Source: an uncultured Planctomycetota bacterium
Lineage (GTDB): Bacteria > Planctomycetota > Planctomycetia > Isosphaerales > Isosphaeraceae
NCBI GenBank assembly: GCA_963823665.1
Contig: CAWGMQ010000008.1
Location: forward strand, 480,001 to 544,000
Reading direction: 5' to 3'
Length of the DNA stretch: 64,000 bases
The notes under the pieces were generated by a model. The model was not told where the DNA came from. It saw nothing but the letters and a program-made list of their open reading frames with translations, and made no database searches. Below, one piece after another: positions 329 to 41,267 of this stretch. A program made the translations under genes and the position numbers. Every line of letters starts with the position of its first letter. Positions within the stretch are counted from its first letter, which is position 1.

Positions 329-3297
329 AGCTTCACTTCGAACCCAACCTCGACTATCAGCTCGCCGCCATCGAATCGGTGTGCGACCTGTTCCGTGGGC
401 AGGAAATCTGCCGGTCGGAGTTCACCGTCACCCAAGACTTCGGTGGCCGCCAAGCGGCCCTCGCCGGGCTGGAGAACGACCTCGGCATCGGCAACAGGTT
501 GACGCTGCTCGACGACGAGATCCTCGGCAATCTCAACGATGTACAGCTTCGCAATGGACTGCGGCCGTCCGAATCGATCGACTCGGGCGACTTCACCGTG
601 GAGATGGAGACCGGCACGGGCAAGACGTACGTCTATATACGCACGATCTTCGAGCTGAACCGGCGATTCGGGTTTACCAAGTTCGTGATTGTGGTTCCTT
701 CGGTTGCCATCAAAGAGGGGGTGTACAAGTCCCTGCAAATCACGGAGGAGCACTTTCGAAGCCTCTATGCCAATGCGCCGTTTGAGTATTTCCTCTACGA
801 TTCCGCGAAGCTCGGCCAGGTGCGGAATTTCGCCACGAGTCCGCAGATCCAGATCATGGTGGTGACGGTCGGTGCGATCAACAAGCAGGATGTCAACAAC
901 CTCTACAAGGAGAGTGAGAAGACCGGCGGCGAGAGGCCGATCGACTTGATCCGGGCGACGCGGCCGATCGTGATCGTTGACGAGCCGCAAAGCGTTGACG
1001 GTGGCCTAGCGGGGCGCGGAAAGGAAGCGCTGGGCTTGATGAATCCGCTCTGCACCCTGCGTTACTCGGCGACACACGTTGACAAGCACCACATGGTGTT
1101 CCGGCTCGATGCCGTGGACGCCTACGATCGCAAGCTAGTGAAGCAGATCGAGGTGGCGGCGGCGGGTGTCGAGGGCGATCACAACAAGCCGTTCATCCGG
1201 TTCGTGTCGGCCGCGAATAAACGGGGTGCGATTTCCGCGAAGGTTGAGCTGGATGTTCAGCGCGTGAACCGGGTGAGCCGCGAAGAGAAGAGCGTCCGCG
1301 ACAACGATGACCTTCAGCAGATCACGGGACGCGCGGTTTATGCGAACTGCCGGATTGGCGAGATTCGCGTGGAGAAGGGGAAGGAGCTCTTGGAAATCAA
1401 GGTTCCGGGAACGGAGCACTGGCTGCAACCGGGGCAGGCGTTTGGCGGTGCCGATGAGTCGATCAAGCGCCAGATGATCCGCCGTACGATCAAGGAACAC
1501 CTCGATAAGGAGATGCGGCTGGCAACGCATAATACTAAGGTGTTGAGCCTGTTCTTTGTTGATAGGGTCGATCGCTATCGCAAGTACGATGACGAAGGCA
1601 ACCCGCAGAAGGGCGACTATGCGGTCTGGTTCGAGGAAGAATATCGCCGGCTGGCGCGGCATCCGGATTATCGAAGTCTGTTCAAGCAGGTCGATGTGCA
1701 GACCGACGCGGCCCAGGTGCACGACGGGTATTTCTCGCTGGATAAGAAGGGGACGTGGTCGGACACAGCGGAAAACAACCAGGGCAACCGCGATAATGCC
1801 GAGCGTGCGTACAACCTGATCATGAAAGACAAGGAAAGGCTGCTGAGCTTCGAGACCAGGCTGAAATTCATTTTTTCGCACTCGGCGCTGCGAGAGGGCT
1901 GGGATAATCCGAATGTCTTTCAGATCTGCGCGCTGCGGGAGATGGGAACCGAGCGGGAGCGCCGACAGACGATTGGCCGCGGGTTGCGGCTCTGCGTGAA
2001 CCAGGAGGGCGCGCGGCTGAGGGGCTTTGACGTGAACACGCTGACGGTCATCGCCACCGAGAGCTACGAGAAGTTCGCCGAGAGCCATCAGAAAGAAATC
2101 GAGCAGGACACGGGGATCCACTTCGGAATCGTTGAGAAGCACCAGTTTGCCGCCATCCCGGTGACCGATGTGTCGGGTCGCACGGTCGCGGTGGGGGTGA
2201 GCCAGTCCGAAGCGATCTGGAACTACTTGAAAGAGACCGGGATGGTCGACGCGAGGGGCAAGGTGCAAGACCGGCTAAGACAGGCGCTCAAGGACGACAG
2301 TTTCACGCTGCCGGACTCGTTTACCGCGCCGCTGGGGCAGGTCAAGGAAGTGCTTCGGAAACTGGCTGGGAAGCTCGAGATCAAAAATGCCGACGAACGA
2401 GTTCAGGTCAAGACGCGTCAGGCGATCCTGCATAGTGAGGAGTTCAAGGCGCTGTGGGACCGCATCAAGCACAAGACGACATACCGCGTGGAGTTTGACA
2501 ACGAGCGGCTGGTCCGAGATTGCGTCAGGGCGATCAGAAATGCTCCGCCGATCACGAAGACGCGTCTGACATGGCGAAGCGCCGATCTGGCGATCGGCAG
2601 GGCGGGCGTCGAGGCGACGGAGACCTCGGTGTCGGCCCCGATCATCATCGAGGAGCACGACCTGGAGCTTCCGGACTTGCTGACGGACCTCCAGGACAAG
2701 ACGCAGCTCACGCGGAGGAGCATCGTGCGGATCTTGACCGCAAGCGAACGGCTTGAAGATTTCAAGAAGAACCCGCAGGAGTTCATCGAGATCGCGGCCG
2801 AGGCCATCAACCGCGCCAAGCGGCTGGCGATCGTGGACGGCATCAAGTATCAGCGCATCGGCGACGCGGAATACTACGCGCAGGAGTTATTCGAGCAGGA
2901 GGAGTTGAGCGGTTACTTGAAGAACGTGCTCGCCGTCACGAGATCGGTCCACGAATACGTGATTCACGATTCGGACGTCGAGAGATCTTTCGCGGATCAG
3001 ATGGAAATTAGCGAGGCGGTGAAGGTCTATGCCAAGCTCCCAGGCTGGTTCACGGTGTCCACGCCATTGGGCCCGTACAATCCCGACTGGGCAGTGCTCG
3101 TTGAAAAGGACGGGGCCGAGCGACTTTATCTGGTGGTGGAGACGAAGGGCAGCCTGTTTGCGGATGATCTTCGGGACCGGGAGAGTGCGAAGATCAAGTG
3201 CGGGGAAGAGCACTTCAGGGCGTTGGCTGTTGGGGAGAATCCGGCTCGGTTTCTGAAGGCAACGAAGCTGGATGACCTGTTCTCGCAGTCACCGTAG
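325..3297 (+). CDS. res: Type III restriction enzyme Res subunit (SF2 helicase + PD-(D/E)xK nuclease)
   Basis: 990 aa; METGTGKT (Walker A), DEPQ (motif II), SALREGWDNPNVFQIC, QTIGRGLRL, C-terminal YNPDWA...VETKG nuclease motif. Confidence 0.95.
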   Translation: MKLHFEPNLDYQLAAIESVCDLFRGQEICRSEFTVTQDFGGRQAALAGLENDLGIGNRLTLLDDEILGNLNDVQLRNGLRPSESIDSGDFTVEMETGTGKTYVYIRTIFELNRRFGFTKFVIVVPSVAIKEGVYKSLQITEEHFRSLYANAPFEYFLYDSAKLGQVRNFATSPQIQIMVVTVGAINKQDVNNLYKESEKTGGERPIDLIRATRPIVIVDEPQSVDGGLAGRGKEALGLMNPLCTLRYSATHVDKHHMVFRLDAVDAYDRKLVKQIEVAAAGVEGDHNKPFIRFVSAANKRGAISAKVELDVQRVNRVSREEKSVRDNDDLQQITGRAVYANCRIGEIRVEKGKELLEIKVPGTEHWLQPGQAFGGADESIKRQMIRRTIKEHLDKEMRLATHNTKVLSLFFVDRVDRYRKYDDEGNPQKGDYAVWFEEEYRRLARHPDYRSLFKQVDVQTDAAQVHDGYFSLDKKGTWSDTAENNQGNRDNAERAYNLIMKDKERLLSFETRLKFIFSHSALREGWDNPNVFQICALREMGTERERRQTIGRGLRLCVNQEGARLRGFDVNTLTVIATESYEKFAESHQKEIEQDTGIHFGIVEKHQFAAIPVTDVSGRTVAVGVSQSEAIWNYLKETGMVDARGKVQDRLRQALKDDSFTLPDSFTAPLGQVKEVLRKLAGKLEIKNADERVQVKTRQAILHSEEFKALWDRIKHKTTYRVEFDNERLVRDCVRAIRNAPPITKTRLTWRSADLAIGRAGVEATETSVSAPIIIEEHDLELPDLLTDLQDKTQLTRRSIVRILTASERLEDFKKNPQEFIEIAAEAINRAKRLAIVDGIKYQRIGDAEYYAQELFEQEELSGYLKNVLAVTRSVHEYVIHDSDVERSFADQMEISEAVKVYAKLPGWFTVSTPLGPYNPDWAVLVEKDGAERLYLVVETKGSLFADDLRDRESAKIKCGEEHFRALAVGENPARFLKATKLDDLFSQSP

Positions 3298-3380
3298 CCA
3301 TTTGCGACAGCCTTGCTCGCGCGGAAGCGCGCTTCGAAGTCGTCGAATGACCGATGAAATGGGCGACTGGACCAATTCCG

Positions 3381-5612
3381 ATGAGATTCGCACACGTTAC
3401 TATCGAGAACTACAAAGGCCTGCGCAGCGTCTCAATCCCATTCTCGCAATTTGTCTGCCTTATTGGCCAAAACAACGCGGGCAAGTCTTCGCTCCTTCAG
3501 GCTGTGCTGCTGCTCATTGAAGGGAAGAAGATTCCCCTCGCATCCTTCTACGACCAGAACTGCGATGTCGTAATTCGGGCCGATCTGGAGGGCATCAGCG
3601 AAGACGACCTATCTCTGGTTGTGAACTTTGAGCACCGGGCGCGGGTTCGCGACGTCGTTGTCGATGGACGACTTTCGCTCGTACGGCGCTATTCTAGCGA
3701 CGGTACTGTACGGCTCCGTTGGATCACCCATGAGCCGAACGAACCGCGATTCGCCGCCGCGGCGCGCGAGGAATTGACCAAAAGCCAACGACCAGGCAAT
3801 GCGTTCGTGGCGAGGGTGATAACAGCGTTTCCGGAACTCGCCGAAAAGCTCAGTGCCACGACGACCGTTGCCGGAGCGCGGAAACTGATCGATGAGCTTG
3901 CAAAGTCACTCCCGGCGGATCAAAAGAAAGAGGTCGAGTCCGACGTAGGCACCGGCATCGATGGCAGCGTCCGCTCGATCCTCCCCGAGCCGATCTACAT
4001 CCCGGCGGTCAAGGACTTTCTCGACGACATCAAAACCAGAGAAGGAACGTCGTTTGGCAAATTGCTCGGCATGCTTCTGGGCGCGATTGGCCCCGAACTT
4101 AGCGAAACGGAGCAGACATTTCAAACATTGAACGAGCGGCTGAATATCACGTTCGACGCGAGTGGGTCACCGGTCGACAATCGCCTCGATCCGGTCCGCC
4201 GGGTTGAGATGTCCATCCACGCATACGTTCAAGAACAATTCCCGCTCGTTGACATCAAACTGAAAATTCCCCCGCCCGAGCTCAAGACGATTCTGTCGAG
4301 CGCAAAAATCGTCGTTGACGACGGCGTCGCGGGCGACCTCGAAACGAAGGGCGATGGCCTCAAGCGCTCGGTCACTTTCGCAATTCTTCGAGCTTACGCC
4401 AGTCTTAAGCGCGACCCAGGCATCGCCCAGGGTAAAAGATCCTCCGGCTACATTCTCATTTTTGAGGAGCCAGAACTCTACCTGCACCCAACCGCGCAGC
4501 AGATCCTCTTCGACGCGCTGTACACCATCTCGCGGACGGATCAAGTCGTGATCAGCACGCACTCACCTCTGTTTTTCTCGCCCGATGCCACGGGGACCTT
4601 CGTCAAGATCGTGAAACAGCCAGGCGAGACGGCGACATCGCGTCCTTTCTCGACTGCGTTCCCAATCGACTTAACCGAAGTCGACCAGCGATCCCGCTTT
4701 CACATAATCAGCTACGACACGAGCAACCAAGCCTTCTTTTTCTCCACGGTTCTCCTAGTTGAGGGCATGAGCGACCACCTCCTTTTTCCGCACCTGGCGC
4801 GCTCGATGAATCCCGACTGGTGCGTGAACAAGCATGGGGTTGCGTTATGCAGAGTGAACGGAAAGGGAAGCATCCGCCGTTACCGTTCGTTTTTCTCGAA
4901 GTTCGACGTCCGGATTGTGGTCTTGGCCGATTTGGACTGTCTGATCGACGGTTTCGATCATCTAGGGGCCAATGTCTCGTGTGTCGAAAAACGAGCGCGG
5001 CTTCTCGAGGCCATCGATTCCGTTCTCAAACCGGAGTGGGCTCGCGCGCGAGGGTCGGCCAGGGAATCAGCCGGTTTGCCGCCATTTACTGAGGGATACC
5101 GAGAGATGATTCGGAGCGGTGTTCTCAAACCCATAAGCAATGATACTATCCGGGAGATATACGACTCTGCCCACAAGAGGGAATCGTGGATAGAACTCGT
5201 CGCTCTTTACGATCAATGTCTCGCGGGCGGCTGCACGCTCGCGGACTTCAAGCAAGCCGGAGATGCGTTCTTCTCGCGGCAGGTTTCGAAGGATCGTCGC
5301 ACTGTGCTGGAAGGTCATGCCACGCCGGAGATCGATCGTCTGAAGCACGAACTTCTGATCATGCTGCGTCAGTCCGACATACTACTTCTGAGCAGGGGAC
5401 CGATCGAAGCGTACCTGCCCGAGGATTGCAAAAGCGCCGACAAGCCGACGCAGGCCTTACGGGTTCGGGAAGTTCTTCGGGACGCCCAATCCATTCGGGC
5501 ACTTTGGGGCGAGGTGCCGATCGCAGGTGACGGGGCTCGGCAAAATGAGCTGGAGCACATCTGCGAGTTAGTTTTTGAAGCTGAGGGCCGTCGAAACACT
5601 CCCTCTTGTTGA
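3381..5612 (+). CDS. OLD-family ATP-dependent endonuclease (ABC ATPase + TOPRIM)
   Basis: MRFAHVTIENYKGL start; GQNNAGKS Walker A, KGDGLKR signature region, FEEPELYLHP Walker B, ISTHSP H-loop, LVEGMSD and ADLD TOPRIM motifs. Confidence 0.9.
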   Translation: MRFAHVTIENYKGLRSVSIPFSQFVCLIGQNNAGKSSLLQAVLLLIEGKKIPLASFYDQNCDVVIRADLEGISEDDLSLVVNFEHRARVRDVVVDGRLSLVRRYSSDGTVRLRWITHEPNEPRFAAAAREELTKSQRPGNAFVARVITAFPELAEKLSATTTVAGARKLIDELAKSLPADQKKEVESDVGTGIDGSVRSILPEPIYIPAVKDFLDDIKTREGTSFGKLLGMLLGAIGPELSETEQTFQTLNERLNITFDASGSPVDNRLDPVRRVEMSIHAYVQEQFPLVDIKLKIPPPELKTILSSAKIVVDDGVAGDLETKGDGLKRSVTFAILRAYASLKRDPGIAQGKRSSGYILIFEEPELYLHPTAQQILFDALYTISRTDQVVISTHSPLFFSPDATGTFVKIVKQPGETATSRPFSTAFPIDLTEVDQRSRFHIISYDTSNQAFFFSTVLLVEGMSDHLLFPHLARSMNPDWCVNKHGVALCRVNGKGSIRRYRSFFSKFDVRIVVLADLDCLIDGFDHLGANVSCVEKRARLLEAIDSVLKPEWARARGSARESAGLPPFTEGYREMIRSGVLKPISNDTIREIYDSAHKRESWIELVALYDQCLAGGCTLADFKQAGDAFFSRQVSKDRRTVLEGHATPEIDRLKHELLIMLRQSDILLLSRGPIEAYLPEDCKSADKPTQALRVREVLRDAQSIRALWGEVPIAGDGARQNELEHICELVFEAEGRRNTPSC

Positions 5613-36564: not shown

Positions 36565-36713
36565 AAGATTTCAAGACACCCAGCGATTTGGCGAGATTGA
36601 GACAGGCATGGACGGATCACTCGGAGAGAATGGGTGTCTGGATGCGCCTCTTTCTGGCTGCGCCCTTCCCCGCACAGTTTCATCGTTGATTCCCGACGAA
36701 AAGGCGGGTGTCC
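36565..36713. repeat. ~130-145-bp dispersed repeat, copy 1 (GACACCC...GGGTGTC ends)
   Basis: TCAAGACACCCAGCG...CACTCGGAGAGAATGGGTGTC...GCTGCGCCCTTCCCCGCAC...CCCGACGAAAAGGCGGGTGTC; other copies at 37026-37152 and 41382-41510. Confidence 0.85.
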
Positions 36714-36744: not shown

Positions 36745-37022
36745 GAGCCCCGCAGGGGCGAAATCTTAAAGCCCGGCGTGTCAACGCCGGGAATGATGGG
36801 TCCCCACGAAAGAAGCCCAGCCACGCAAGGGGCGACATCATAAAGCCCGGCGTGTTCAACTGCGGGGATGATGGGCCCCAATCAAAGAAGCCCAGCCCCG
36901 CAAGGGGCGAAATCATAAAGCCCGGCGTGTCAACGCCGGGAATGATGGGTCCCCACGAAAGAAGCCCAGCCACGCAAGGGGCGACATCATAAAGCCCGGC
37001 GTGTCAACGCCGGGGATGATGG
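36745..37022. repeat. Four ~74-bp tandem REP-like units with palindrome CCCGGCGTGTCAACGCCGGG
   Basis: AAAGCCCGGCGTG at 36768, 36842, 36917, 36991; each unit also has AGCC(C/A)CGCA(A)GGGGCGA. Confidence 0.9.
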
Positions 37023-37025
37023 ACG

Positions 37026-37152
37026 AAGATTCAAGACACCCAGCGTTTTGGCGAGTTTGAGGCAGCCATGGATGGACCACTCGGAGAGAATGTGTGTCCG
37101 GCTGCGCCCTTCCCCGCACGGTTTCATCTTTGATTCCCGACGAAAGGGTGGG
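37026..37152. repeat. Dispersed repeat copy 2, ending at the 3' end of the outer group II intron
   Basis: Matches 36565-36713 and 41382-41510. Confidence 0.85.
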
Positions 37153-37185
37153 GCCGGGTCGCCTTGGGGGATCGCTCCCCCAAGG

Positions 37186-39605
37186 GCCGGGTAAGGAGGT
37201 GACGTTACCGCCACCCCCTCCCCTCAGAACTGCACGTGAAAGTTTCCCTTCATGCAGCTCAAGCCTTCACGAACGCCCCTCGCAGGACGCGGCCGCTTTC
37301 GTCAGTCGTTCTTGGACATGGATCTGCCGATGACAGTTGGCATGCAACAACTCCAGGTTGTCGGCTGTGCCAGAACCGCCCCGGCTGCGCCAGATGCGAT
37401 GGTGGAGATGCAAGTCTTCCTCTGCGATCCGCAGCGGTTGACCACAGACCACGCATCGTCCCTCTTGTTCCTTCCATAAGTATTCGATCCGACCCCGACC
37501 TGCCAGCGTTTGGCTCAGTTGCCAACCCAGTCGTGCTTCCAGGTACAGTTCCCACTTCGGATCGTAGGGATTCACGTCGCTCCGGATCTTCACATAACGA
37601 ATGATCTTCACTTTGGCTGCTTCCATCAACTGGATCGGCCGGCCTTGGCCTTTCTGGTCAAACAGCGTACCGGTGAAGACCCAGTGGCGGTAACCGTCTT
37701 GCTGGAAGTATTTCTCCTTGATCCACCTCCGGCCTTTGTTCTGGTGCCGTCGTCGACACCAACGCCACAATTTCTGGAAAATCCGGTGATCCACGTACGT
37801 AAAAGTGCGCTTGCTCGCCGCGTAACGGTGGTACATGGTCCAGCCCTTGATCTGCTGATTCAAACGCCAGATCATCTCTCCTGCCGTTAGGCTGCCCGAG
37901 CCGTCGATCGTTTCCTGTATCTTGTTCAAGAACGTCTTCACGTTTCGCAAGGACGGCTTGGTGAACACCTTGCCGCAGCGATAGCGTCGCACATTCTGCC
38001 CCAAGAAATCGAAGCCATCCTCCACATGCGTGATCTGGGTTTTCTCGTGGGAAAGTTCCAAGCCGCGTTCCTTCAAGAAATGAGCCACGAGAGGTTGCAC
38101 TTGGTCACGGAGGAGTTCCTTTGAGATGCCCGTGATCAAGAAGTCATCCGCATAGCGGACCAGGTGGACTTTAAACTTCCGTTGTCGCCCGTGCTTCTCG
38201 GCGAACTGTTCCGCCAACAGCCGTTGCAGTCCATCCAGAGTCCAATTCGCCAGGACGGGTGAAATGATCCCGCCTTGAGGTGTTCCTTCCGTGGTGGCGA
38301 ACCAGGCGTGCTTCTCCAGGAAACCCACTTTCAGCCATTGCCCGAGCAACTGCCGGTCCATGGGGACGTGCGTCAAGAGCCAGTCATGACTGATGCGATC
38401 AAAGCAAGCTTTGATGTCCCCTTCGAGAATCCATGCTGGACCGCTCCGATTACCCAAGACAATATGAGATTGTTCCAGGGCGTCGGCACAACGACGTTCC
38501 AGCCGAAAGCCATAGGAATGGCCGTCGGCTCGAGATTCCGCAATGGGATCGAGGCCTAGCAAGTATAATGCCTGCATGGCTCGATCTGACATGGTGGGAA
38601 TTCCGAGAGGACGTCGCTTGCCGTTGCTTTTGGGAATGTACACCCGGCGGAGCGGTTGCGGTTGGTAACCGTGCCGACGCAGAGTGCTGAAAGCAGCCGA
38701 CTTGGCTTCCGGTGTGTTCCAGAGAACTCCGTCCACACCGGGAGTCTTCGCACCCGAATTACTGATGACTCGCAAAATGGCCAGGGCCCGGCCACTGAAC
38801 GAGTGCGTGAGCAGATAAACCAGAGCCTTGACCTTATTCCATCTGCCCTCCGCAACAGCCTTCACGATACGCGCCTGGAGCCGACGGACTGTGCGCCAGA
38901 CTTTCTTCCATTCGATGGAGTGCCAGTCGGGCGTAAGCTCGGGAGCCGCACCAGCAAGCATTTCTGCCGCCGACATATCTGCTTGTCTCCCTGAGTCGGT
39001 TGGCCAAGGTTCTCTCGTGACGGAACACCTGAGGGAAGTCGGCACCGCTTTCGCGGTGAGGGGATGTCGTCCGTGGGAGGACTCACCCTCTATCCGATCG
39101 ACTACCGAACGGCATTGGCTTGCTCCCTCATCCTCCACCCGCCGCCCCATCGGCGACGCCTTACGACGGTCCTACCCCGAAGGGAGGGCGACGGGCTTAC
39201 CACGTTCCACGGATGAATCACGGATGGTTTAGGCTCTGCCTCTCCGCCGGTGGCTCGGATGACGACGACAGGGGATGGGAAATCCCACTGTACCTGGCCA
39301 CGTACCTTTTTGGTTCAAGCCTCTCAGCGCCTTTGGCTTGTTGGATCTCACGACGTTTATCGGCAGTTCACCTGGATTAGCCATGCCATCCACCCCTGGC
39401 CCCCGACCGCATTGGCGTTCGCAGTCGCCGGATTCCCTCACGGGATATCCAACCACCCGAAGGTGAGGTTACGTTGTCCCAAGAGCTTCGCACGGTCGGA
39501 TTGCTCCGGCCGCACGTCCTGGTAGGGTTCCGGTGGTCGTACATCGGGTTATGTCCTGGTTGCAAATCCAGTCATAACAGACTCATCCGCAGCTTCGTTT
39601 CGCGA
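37186..39605 (-). mobile_element. RT-encoding group II intron (IIB, chloroplast-like class), inner intron
   Basis: 5' TCGCGAAACGAAGC; GGAACGTGGTAAGCCC; domain V GAGCTGCATGAAGGGAAACTTTCACGTGCAGTTC directly after the RT stop; domain VI ending CCTTACCCGGC. Confidence 0.92.
37267..38976 (-). CDS. ltrA: Group II intron reverse transcriptase/maturase with HNH endonuclease
   Basis: WHSIEW...RRLQARI N-terminal domain, [32 protein letters not shown], domain X GWTMYH, C-terminal CxxC...HH...[10 protein letters not shown]. Confidence 0.96.
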
Positions 39606-40379
39606 TTCCCACAGATCCGGACTTGCCCGTCGAAGAGGCATCCGGCTCGTCACGTTGGGGAATCACTGTCCCTCACACGACTAGGTCGTTTCGCGGTGAC
39701 ACGCTGGTGAGGCACGGTGTCCTAGCGTGGTTCCAACTTCCCATCCACAAGGCGGTGCCCCCTTCGCTCCACAGGGTCCGGAGGGCCGTTCCCCCGCTTC
39801 AACACTACTATGGGGCACTCCGACTCCTTGCCGTCCATCTCGCCGCACTTCGTTTCCTTCGCTTGGCGATACCATCGTTCGTCCCCTGTTCGTCCCCACC
39901 AGCTCGGGACAGAGCTGTGGATCAACCTGGAGTTGGTAAGCCGGTGCGCCAGCCGGCCGTCACGATGGAGACGCCAAGGTCTCCCAAGTTCCCGGGGAAC
40001 CCTTGTGATCATCCGCCATGTTCCTCCGACCCCGGCGTGACCAAGCAGGCTTGAGTGGACCAAGAGTTAGTTGCCTGGCGCGGCCCCCGCGGGCGTCCAA
40101 GACGAGGGCTCACAACGACGAAATTTCGGGGCTCAATCACACAGCGTTTGATCTCGCTGTCTACGCTTCGCAGTGGAGGTCACCCGCCACCACGCAAGAC
40201 TCGCTGCCGGCTGCTGGTCCAGCTTTGCCGGACGGGATTGGTTACCCGCAGAGTTCCGATAAAAGGTTTCACATTTGAGGTGATCCTCCTTTTCCGAGCT
40301 TCTTGGCGCAAGGACGCAGCTAGTTTGGCTACAAGCCTGAGAGTGCTCGGAGACAATCTCCGCCGAGCCGACAAGCGCA

Positions 40380-41267
40380 TCAAGACGTGAGCTTCTTGCG
40401 AAACGCCGCCAGGCTCCGGCACGTGGCGGCGTGCTCGATCAAGTCCTTCATCCGCGCATCGTCGGCGATCGCCATGATCTCTGTCTCGAGCGCTTCAGCT
40501 TGGGTGCCAAACCGCCGTATCAGAAACGTCATGAGTGATTCGATTTCCCCTTCGCGCTTCCCTTCGCGCTTCCCTTCGCGCTTCCCCTCTTCGGTCCATT
40601 CTTTCTTGAGTTCTTGAAGTAACGGCGATTCGATCATGGCTTGTCGCCCTCCCAGGATCTCGAACAACGCCTCGTCATTATACCGCAAGCGTGCCAGGAA
40701 TTGAGTCACTGCGAGCAGATTTTCCTTCTCGACGCGCGAGCCGACTTTGTCAATGCGAGCTCGGCATTCGCGGATGATCGGCTCAGGTGGTCCATCGAAC
40801 TGCGCCAGCGGCACCCACGGAACCACACCGATATCGCCGGTCGCCAGTAGGTCGCCGGCCGGCACTTCCCACAGCTTGACGATGCGCCATGACGCATCCC
40901 ACGTCGTACAGCCCTGGCGGCTCTTCAACTTGATGGTTTCCGCCGGCAGGACATTTCCCTTGGGGTAGAGAAACAGGACCACGACCTCCGGAAGTACATG
41001 TCGCCCCAGCCATGAGAGCGCGATGTCGTCCATTACCTGACTCGTGACGCGTGCTTCGGGGTAAGTGGCAATTTCCAGGAGATACGTGTCGAGCTCGTCT
41101 TCGCCGAGGTGTAGCACCTCGATCAGCCCATCGGGAAGCCGCCGGTGCTGGACGAGCTCGGCCTGCACCGGCTTCCACGATGAGATGGCCCGCACACGCG
41201 CCATGCGAAGAATCGAGTCGCCGTAGTGCTGGATCTGGTACTTTCCGCACTTGTCATATTCGTGCAT
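40380..41267 (-). CDS. Rpn/YhgA-like PD-(D/E)xK protein (putative recombination-promoting nuclease)
   Basis: YD start, LPDGLIEV...LLEIATY, VKLWEVP, VPWVPL, MIESPLL, (EGKR)3 coiled tail and RRFG C-terminal domain. Confidence 0.65.
   Translation of the reverse strand: MHEYDKCGKYQIQHYGDSILRMARVRAISSWKPVQAELVQHRRLPDGLIEVLHLGEDELDTYLLEIATYPEARVTSQVMDDIALSWLGRHVLPEVVVLFLYPKGNVLPAETIKLKSRQGCTTWDASWRIVKLWEVPAGDLLATGDIGVVPWVPLAQFDGPPEPIIRECRARIDKVGSRVEKENLLAVTQFLARLRYNDEALFEILGGRQAMIESPLLQELKKEWTEEGKREGKREGKREGEIESLMTFLIRRFGTQAEALETEIMAIADDARMKDLIEHAATCRSLAAFRKKLTS

Follow-up and report, generated by a model that had tools for sequence, protein, structure and literature searches.

Can a bacterial group II intron be aimed at the catalytic core of another, unrelated intron? 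This question is raised by a stretch of 64,000 nucleotides (nt; hereafter the window) from an uncultured Planctomycetota bacterium of the family Isosphaeraceae (GCA_963823665.1, contig CAWGMQ010000008.1, positions 480,001 to 544,000). Rfam models identified the 5' parts of two different group II introns on its minus strand together with a single set of domains V and VI (DV and DVI), one intron (the inner intron; coordinates in Table 1) lying within a second, unrelated one (the host intron, 40311..37153). An original prediction, made from the letters of the window, had proposed that the exon-binding sites (EBSs) of the inner intron are programmed against the DV of the other. The core of this proposal is supported, as the inner EBSs complement the DV/DVI end of another intron family and the element was found only there, in all seven copies in the genome and in a copy (L049) in another genome. 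We propose, from sequence comparison, that the locus is very probably a bacterial twintron made by site-specific retrohoming.

The genome (16.46 Mb in 12 contigs) contains seven copies of the inner intron, which match at 100% identity across exactly 2420 nt and diverge beyond these ends. All seven occupy the same spot in the host family, in hosts of three subfamilies that are 72-91% identical to the host in the window; inner copies that are more alike than their hosts, at one site in many host copies, are the pattern by which twintron homing is recognised. In each case the 5' flank comprises a DV-like hairpin and GGATCTGTGGGA, with A (three copies) or G (four copies) as the last base, and the intron is followed by C. 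The inner intron begins with TCGCGAAACG at 39605 (UCGCGA) and ends with UUACCCGGC (CCCGGC). An uninterrupted host of the long type (L143) reads ...GGATCTGTGGGAG|CCTTGGGGG..., the two flanks joined, and in longer context ...GCCCGGATCTGTGGGAG|CCTTGGGGGAGCG..., identical to the joined flanks of four occupied copies. This perfect empty site therefore fixes the insertion point and the ends of the inner intron, and exact removal of the latter regains the outer intron, with joined flanks equal to L143 and the DVI helix restored.

The bases on which the original prediction was built were confirmed on the minus strand, where the 5' exon reads GGATCT (39618-39613), G (39612) and TGGGAA (39611-39606). 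Both AGATCC (39348-39343) and TTCCCA (39281-39276) are perfect complements of these hexamers, the latter lying, as had been described, between GGGA (39286-39283) and TCCC (39275-39272). A total of 34 related intron 5' regions were aligned, including 32 with a full exon (26 distinct). The TTCCCA columns pair at five or more of six positions with the last six bases of their own exon in 20 of the 26 rows, compared with 6.7% for the exons of other rows, and the AGATCC columns pair with their own exon positions -13 to -8 in 19 of 26 (8% in the control with others' exons). The column of the EBS3 candidate was the best among all alignment columns, being complementary to the first 3'-exon base (+1) in 26 of 28 relatives with five pair types. 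A further contact, EBS2a (intron position 257, two bases 5' of a 5-nt EBS2), is joined to exon position -14 by a Watson-Crick pair in 23 of 25 distinct relatives (three pair types), and the adjoining combinations of column and position pair in just 1-14 of 25 rows. Covariation with the exons of homologues, which had been named as a check for the 5' side, was accordingly seen at EBS1, EBS2, EBS2a and EBS3, and all four pairings are perfect in the window. These are the contacts laid down in the IIB1 rules for EcI5 and Th.e.I3 (EBS1, a 5-bp EBS2, EBS2a with position -14, and EBS3) in PMC8643678.

The proposed pairing of both hexamers at six of six positions holds for EBS1 and for five pairs of EBS2, but the sixth EBS2 pair is not a conserved contact. 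Because AGATCC begins with an invariant A in the relatives and their exon position -8 is variable, the conserved EBS2 consists of the 5-nt GAUCC plus EBS2a, the sixth A-U pair being particular to this intron. Together, the four predicted contacts (EBS2a G, EBS2 GAUCC with the extra A, EBS1 UUCCCA and EBS3 G) spell C-GGAUC-U-G-UGGGAR^C. When the first 620 nt of the intron were shuffled 20,000 times with dinucleotides preserved, the hexamers occurred singly in 11.6% and 22.9% of cases, and both together with EBS2 40-90 nt upstream of EBS1 in 0.2%. A fold burying the EBSs in stems, which had been named as a refuting result, was obtained in part: in the minimum free energy (MFE) structure of 176 nt, UUCCC lies in a hairpin loop but AUCC of EBS2 is paired with an upstream GGAU. 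The upstream segment shows no covariation with EBS2 among the relatives, so the stem that buries EBS2 is unsupported, and the MFE fold of the region (z = -0.93) is no better than those of shuffles and was not used as structural evidence.

The insertion point had been placed in the DV-DVI linker; it falls instead within DVI, separating the fifth from the sixth base pair of the branch-point helix (alignment columns 43 and 44) and facing the bulged branch A of the host. The target spans the 3' strand of DV, a 2-nt linker and the 5' basal strand of DVI. Of the intron-binding sites (IBSs) within it, IBS1 (UGGGAR) is the 5' basal strand of DVI, and the IBS2 hexamer is the final 5 nt of DV plus one linker base, GGAUC with C(-14) forming the end of the DV 3' strand. 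The two systems previously described (Methanosarcina acetivorans and Thermosynechococcus elongatus) have targets in an open reading frame (ORF) or domain IV (DIV) of a related host, an arrangement that differs from the one found here. The remark that the inner intron would avoid inserting into itself is true by sequence (GCAGTTCTGAGGGGA versus CGGATCTGTGGGAA) but trivial.

The inner intron has a DV with an AGC triad and a DVI with a bulged A near the 3' end, both covered by RF00029. Its protein matches Pfam RVT_N (99.2 bits), RVT_1 (129.2), GIIM (73.2) and HNH (41.5), as well as TIGR04416 (342.6 bits; cutoff 300), and thus contains the reverse transcriptase (RT), X, D and endonuclease (En; HNH) parts and the YADD motif of mobile IIB1 introns with a CL1-type RT. 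Its best match among PDB structures was 6ME0 chain C (E = 7e-181, residues 3-556), with LtrA as runner-up (9e-39). According to PMC8643678, 6ME0 is Th.e.I3/T.el4h of Thermosynechococcus elongatus, a IIB1 intron with a CL1 RT. The inner element is hence a predicted autonomous group IIB1 intron near T. elongatus T.el4h and Escherichia coli EcI5.

The host is of a different lineage, as had been claimed: the two RTs are 34% identical over 228 amino acids (aa), the host RT has no En domain, and the introns match different Rfam D1-D4 models. The host repeat family has 44 matches in the genome, mostly uninterrupted, ORF-less and ~735 nt long; more than 25 copies of the intron are present, with or without its own 465-aa RT gene. 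Rfam D1D4-6 scores on host copies range from 97 to 140 bits. The longer form encodes an En-less RT/maturase of 465 aa (TIGR04416, 326.5 bits), intact in two of the six long copies examined and frameshifted in four. The outer element has the domain I (DI) to DIV RNA, in its long form an RT/maturase in DIV, and DV and DVI helices with a bulged A. In 13 DV-DVI segments from this genome and a second one (G004), 99.7% of cells are paired, compared with 92.3% in shuffles and 21-54% for slid partners, and there are nine compensatory pairs compared with 3.3 in shuffles. The 11 pairs of DV are 100% paired (two compensatory) and the 15 pairs of DVI 99.5% (seven compensatory). Host DV is atypical, as all 13 copies have A instead of U opposite the middle G of the AGC triad. 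Both the canonical G-U triad pair and an RF00029 match are lacking: uninterrupted host copies gave no match at the gathering score, and the interrupted copy in the window none at E values up to 1. The G-A opposition falls in alignment columns 3 and 33 (39646 and 39616 in the window), and GAA replaces GAG at the triad in eight G004 copies. Searches of the host RT against PDB returned equally weak matches to IIC and IIA RTs, short of naming a class, and its plasmid relatives (52-57% identical) are annotated just as ltrA.

The EBS1 loop of the host covaries with its 5' exon, with AGACAC/GUGUCU in family A, UGUCUGA/UCAGACA in family B and GGACGC/GCGUCC in the window. The host is thus a real group II intron and, because its own EBS1 covaries with three different 5' exons, a putative retrohoming element itself. 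Comparison of host-family insertion sites (window 40312/40311 and 37153/37152; L028, L041, L044, L047 and L048) placed family A and the long type at GGTGGGTGTCT^GACATCCC and family B at GGGATGTCAGACA^CCCACC on the opposite strand of the same short repeat, empty copies of which are present in L041, L044 and L029. The host introns would accordingly home into a short genomic repeat, which gives a predicted three-layer nesting.

A scan of one genome per species recovered 66 loci with relatives of the inner RT, mostly in metagenome-assembled genomes of Planctomycetota. L049, from another genome, is a 98% identical copy that shares the 5' flank and is followed on the 3' side by a host DVI, and three 5'-truncated copies from two further genomes (L096, L106 and L075) end before a host-type DVI. 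A tree built from the final 556 nt (27 distinct rows of 33) united these four with the window, the five rows flanked by host DVI and representing four genomes, as a clade at 99/99 support; EBS sequences differ in the remaining 22 rows, and so do the targets, which are often repeated. The expectation that homologues would have 5' exons ending in GGATCTGTGGGA(A/G) is therefore borne out in one clade (5 of 27 distinct rows) but fails for most homologues. The landing site is a trait of that clade, because the sister clades changed both EBS and target. In G004, perfect but empty sites are present in many host copies and clade members are lacking, its best matches to the inner type of DI being 68-77% identical. 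L098 and L099, with the same EBS2 and the site GGCGGATCAGCTYTGG, were considered as possible insertions into the DV of an intron and rejected, the site having no inverted repeat and no extra Rfam match. Eight loci of a sister clade from two genomes (L056-L058, L067-L070 and L077) have in common a structured 5' flank of ~55 nt, ...CTCAGAAACTGAG...CCCATCGATTACCTTGGCC, and a 3' flank ACGCACA, together resembling the end of another repeated element. In every relative of the inner intron whose two ends were compared by eye (L049-L108; 39605 and 37187 in the window), the first base and the penultimate one are linked, with GUGCG...CCCGAC on the one hand and UUGCG, UUGUG or UCGCG...CCCGGC on the other; the host introns (UUGCG...CCCGGC) obey the same rule.

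Under the proposed site-specific retrohoming, the lariat ribonucleoprotein of an excised inner intron would reverse-splice into the top DNA strand between R(-1) and C(+1), after which the HNH domain would nick the bottom strand and the RT copy the intron. The insertion would split the branch-point helix of the host, whose ribozyme would be restored only once the inner intron has spliced out, unless this helix is able to form across the folded insert. We infer splicing, its order, endonuclease cleavage and the current mobility of the inner intron, whereas the anatomy, boundaries, complementarity, covariation, identical copies in diverged hosts, empty site and four-genome clade were observed.

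Several observations weigh against this proposal. In the host RNA, IBS2 lies within the stable DV helix, and this could impede the inner intron's splicing. Site occupancy is uneven: the pattern CCGGATCNGTGGG has 30 matches in the genome (none for the reversed control), and of the ten with N=T seven are occupied, one is perfect and empty (L143), and two are empty, having UGGGGG and a +1 base (G or A) that mismatches EBS3. None of the 17 matches with N=A is occupied (15 within host introns, two outside), and three matches have N=C or G. The 15 host copies with GGATCAGTGGGAG|C are fully cognate by canonical IIB1 rules, deviating at -8 alone, where pairing is not conserved, yet none of the 15 is occupied; base pairing alone therefore does not account for occupancy. 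Their emptiness could reflect the timing of subfamily expansion, protein contacts or the extra A-U pair; the 15 copies are near-identical to one another, which fits a recent expansion. As host copies are not independent, no probability was put on the occupancy contrast, and its interpretation as an IBS2 effect (7 of 10 with T at -8 compared with 0 of 15 with A) was dropped, -8 not being a conserved pairing position. The only sequencing runs with the sequence were contigs of soil, peat or rhizosphere metagenomes and metatranscriptomes; the four compared, of 24 listed, lacked the joint of 39606 to 37185, none having at least 31 letters on both sides of a junction. Their cover was patchy and by relatives of 90-99% identity, and they do not bear on splicing, transcription or habitat.

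The 3' flank of the insertion in the window is also at odds with simple reverse splicing and target-primed reverse transcription, which do not predict a chimeric host. The 706-nt 5' part of this host is 91% identical to that of L046, whereas its 33-nt DVI remainder (37153-37185) is identical at 33 of 33 positions to the long-type DVI and unlike that of L046, and with the 3' exon CCCACCC it returns to its own subfamily. A conversion tract of at least 27 nt confined to the 3' side, possibly a co-conversion, is one possible explanation, and gene conversion between 2.4-kb identical copies or a homing coupled to recombination would predict such a flank. Co-conversion of the flanks of L045 was also considered and rejected as unproven, since families A and long are near-identical relatives and this DVI may be native to L045.

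One alternative is spread at the DNA level (homologous recombination or gene conversion among copies of the host intron, or repair of endonuclease-induced double-strand breaks), with the EBS/IBS match a relic of one insertion. The chimeric flank implies an exchange reaching at least 27 nt 3' of the insertion, and identical copies of 2.4 kb offer ample homology. However, hosts of different subfamilies, at 72-91% identity, are poor substrates, and the base at -1 (A in three of seven copies, G in four) indicates that the 5' flank was not carried along. Moreover, the clade keeps its site over four genomes while sister clades shifted EBS and target together, the signature of RNA-guided homing, and we consider DNA-level spread improbable. 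Movement of the twintron solely as a unit, the seven copies reflecting retrohoming of the outer intron, is harder still to sustain. Composite retromobility is listed as a possible route for twintrons by Mohr et al. 2010 (PMC2882425) and four of the seven hosts are of the same long type, but the hosts belong to three diverged subfamilies with inner copies that are identical, a full EBS set for this site is present in the inner intron itself, and an empty long-type host exists (L143); this explanation is very improbable. Chance complementarity after an ectopic insertion is a negligible prospect, since single hexamers are common in shuffles (12% and 23%) but the ordered, spaced pair occurs in 0.2%, and it is refuted by seven identical copies at one site (7 of 7) and by the covariation of the four contacts.

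Returning to site-specific retrohoming, a broader reading can be offered only tentatively, and we lean against it as a whole. Here, an autonomous IIB1 clade would be a dedicated hyperparasite of a different intron lineage, its guide sequences kept on the DV/DVI core of the host across two subclades and at least four soil genomes. The host would splice and move only after excision of the inner intron, which would thereby control host activity, and the exchanged 33-nt 3' flank would imply a homing process coupled to recombination. Retrohoming of bacterial model introns is recombination-independent.

Table 1 Features of the inner intron and its host in the window (all on the minus strand)
Feature	Position	Strand	Evidence or remark
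Inner intron, group IIB1-like, 2420 nt	37186..39605	-	Seven identical copies; Rfam; empty site L143
Rfam D1D4-7, inner intron	39399-39548	-	105.5 bits
Inner intron domains V and VI, branch A in UUACCC	37186..37262	-	RF00029, 63.4 bits, full length (model 1-77)
Inner intron-encoded protein, 569 aa	37267..38976	-	RT, maturase (X) and HNH endonuclease domains; YADD in translation
Inner EBS1 UUCCCA, hairpin loop	39276..39281	-	Pairs with IBS1; covariation
Inner EBS2a G, invariant A, EBS2 GAUCC	39349, 39348, 39347-39343	-	Single-stranded stretch 3' of conserved stem
Inner EBS3 candidate G, intron position 364	39242	-	Pairs with 3'-exon base +1 (C, 37185)
Target in host: IBS2a C, IBS2 GGAUC, U, G, IBS1 UGGGAA	39619, 39618-39614, 39613, 39612, 39611-39606	-	
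Host intron 5' segment: DI-DV and 5' basal DVI strand, starts UUGCG, no ORF	39606..40311	-	Rfam D1D4-6; 5' end by alignment with other copies
Host intron 3' segment: upper DVI hairpin, branch-point strand CGACCC, end GGC	37153..37185	-	Aligns with uninterrupted copies
Rfam D1D4-6, host intron	40020-40241	-	105.3 bits
Host DV GAGCCGGAU...GUCCGGAUC	39614..39648	-	Alignment of 13 uninterrupted copies
Host EBS1 GGACGC	40093..40098	-	Complements own 5' exon GCGUCC (40317-40312)

One of the truncated clade members, L075 (genome G002), contains a third intron type (positions 2214-4160; Rfam D1D4-2, 118.9 bits) with two different flanks: its 5' exon is a host-type RT ORF after the YADD codons and its 3' exon an inner-type RT ORF after its own YADD codons. 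Two copies of a putative YADD-homing intron have apparently recombined here, with loss of the 3' half of the host and the 5' half of the inner intron. The third type is represented in G002 (L148-L153) by two identical full copies and four ORF-less relatives, three of the four in RT-like ORFs just before YADD, and a search did not find it in the genome of the window. The PeerJ twintron paper was considered as a precedent for homing into YADD codons and set aside, its accessible portion being silent on such homing. Upstream of the host intron in the window, a 295-aa ORF (40380-41267, minus strand) with a threefold GKRE repeat near its C-terminus ends 68 nt before it and had no Pfam match at E values up to 0.001. 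Directly 3' of the twintron is a tandem array (36754-37044) of four copies with a period of 74-75 nt, three units of which match Rfam Acido-Lenti-1 (50.4, 43.0 and 33.5 bits). The array is flanked by a direct repeat of ~125-140 nt (36570-36708 and 37030-37152; 89-91% identical), the end of which resembles the homing sequence of the host intron.

With this locus, the small set of bacterial introns that target other introns gains a well-documented natural case, in which the invader aims at the host's most conserved RNA-structural part and not at its protein gene. A ribozyme's response to a 2.4-kb insert in its branch-point helix can be studied here as a natural experiment, and the emptiness of 15 apparently cognate sites makes IIB1 target rules testable. 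One genome holds three nested layers of selfish DNA. Nothing known about group II introns is overturned.

The original prediction had held the system to be poorly described. However, introns that home into other group II introns have already been published, as has the safe-harbour argument (PMC4424553, PMC2882425); the kind is already known, and the landing site is new among intron-in-intron cases. No bacterial clade aimed at the DV/DVI of a different lineage was found in the full-text literature, outside which most subscription papers lie, and three features are unmatched in the literature searched, namely the unrelated host lineage, the RNA-structural target and the clade-wide persistence. 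Repeated site-specific homing into other group II introns, as 'a perpetual homing site', has been described in Methanosarcina acetivorans (Zimmerly and Semper 2015, PMC4424553). Deletions by recombination between copies occur there (PMC4424553), to which the deletion in L075 is analogous, but M. acetivorans is an archaeon with arrays up to five deep (PMC4424553), compared with one inner level here, and its targets are, by the title of Dai and Zimmerly 2003, the ORFs of related introns, whereas the present target is RNA-structural and non-coding.

In T. elongatus, ORF-less F3 introns (TeI3a-e) lie inside F1 introns (TeI4a-e), having evolved to enter another intron at a conserved site (Mohr, Ghanem and Lambowitz 2010, PMC2882425). 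The inner intron resembles this system in being of IIB1 type, in an RT near TeI4h and in its 5' U, TeI4h also beginning with a 5' T (PMC2882425). Further likenesses are identical inner copies in diverged outer introns, which PMC2882425 reads as recent independent insertions, and the use of another mobile element as a harmless, multiplying target (PMC2882425). It differs in that the inner intron here is autonomous (RT and HNH), the host lineage is different (34% RT identity) and the site is in the ribozyme core. The twintron of Trichodesmium erythraeum is likewise a bacterial group II-in-group II case, with IIB-type partners and demonstrated sequential splicing (Pfreundt and Hess 2015, PMC4649490), but its inner intron is in host domain I at a single locus in a gene (PMC4649490), in contrast to the multi-copy homing pattern found here. 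Plant mitochondrial intron-in-intron cases are in DIV (PMC7049729), and in a euglenoid plastid twintron the internal intron lies 3 nt upstream of the external 3' splice site (PMC5572947). Euglenoid internal introns share with the present one a position in or beside DV/DVI and an outer intron dependent on prior excision, but they are organellar, degenerate and mostly ORF-less, and EBS-programmed multi-copy homing into DV/DVI is not shown for them in the text available. Copertino and Hallick reportedly described in 1991 an internal intron in domain V of the psbF intron. Finally, all four contacts known from EcI5 and Th.e.I3 (PMC8643678) are at the expected places here, with covariation; the targets there are genes or plasmid sites, whereas here the target is 15 nt of the DV/DVI of another ribozyme.

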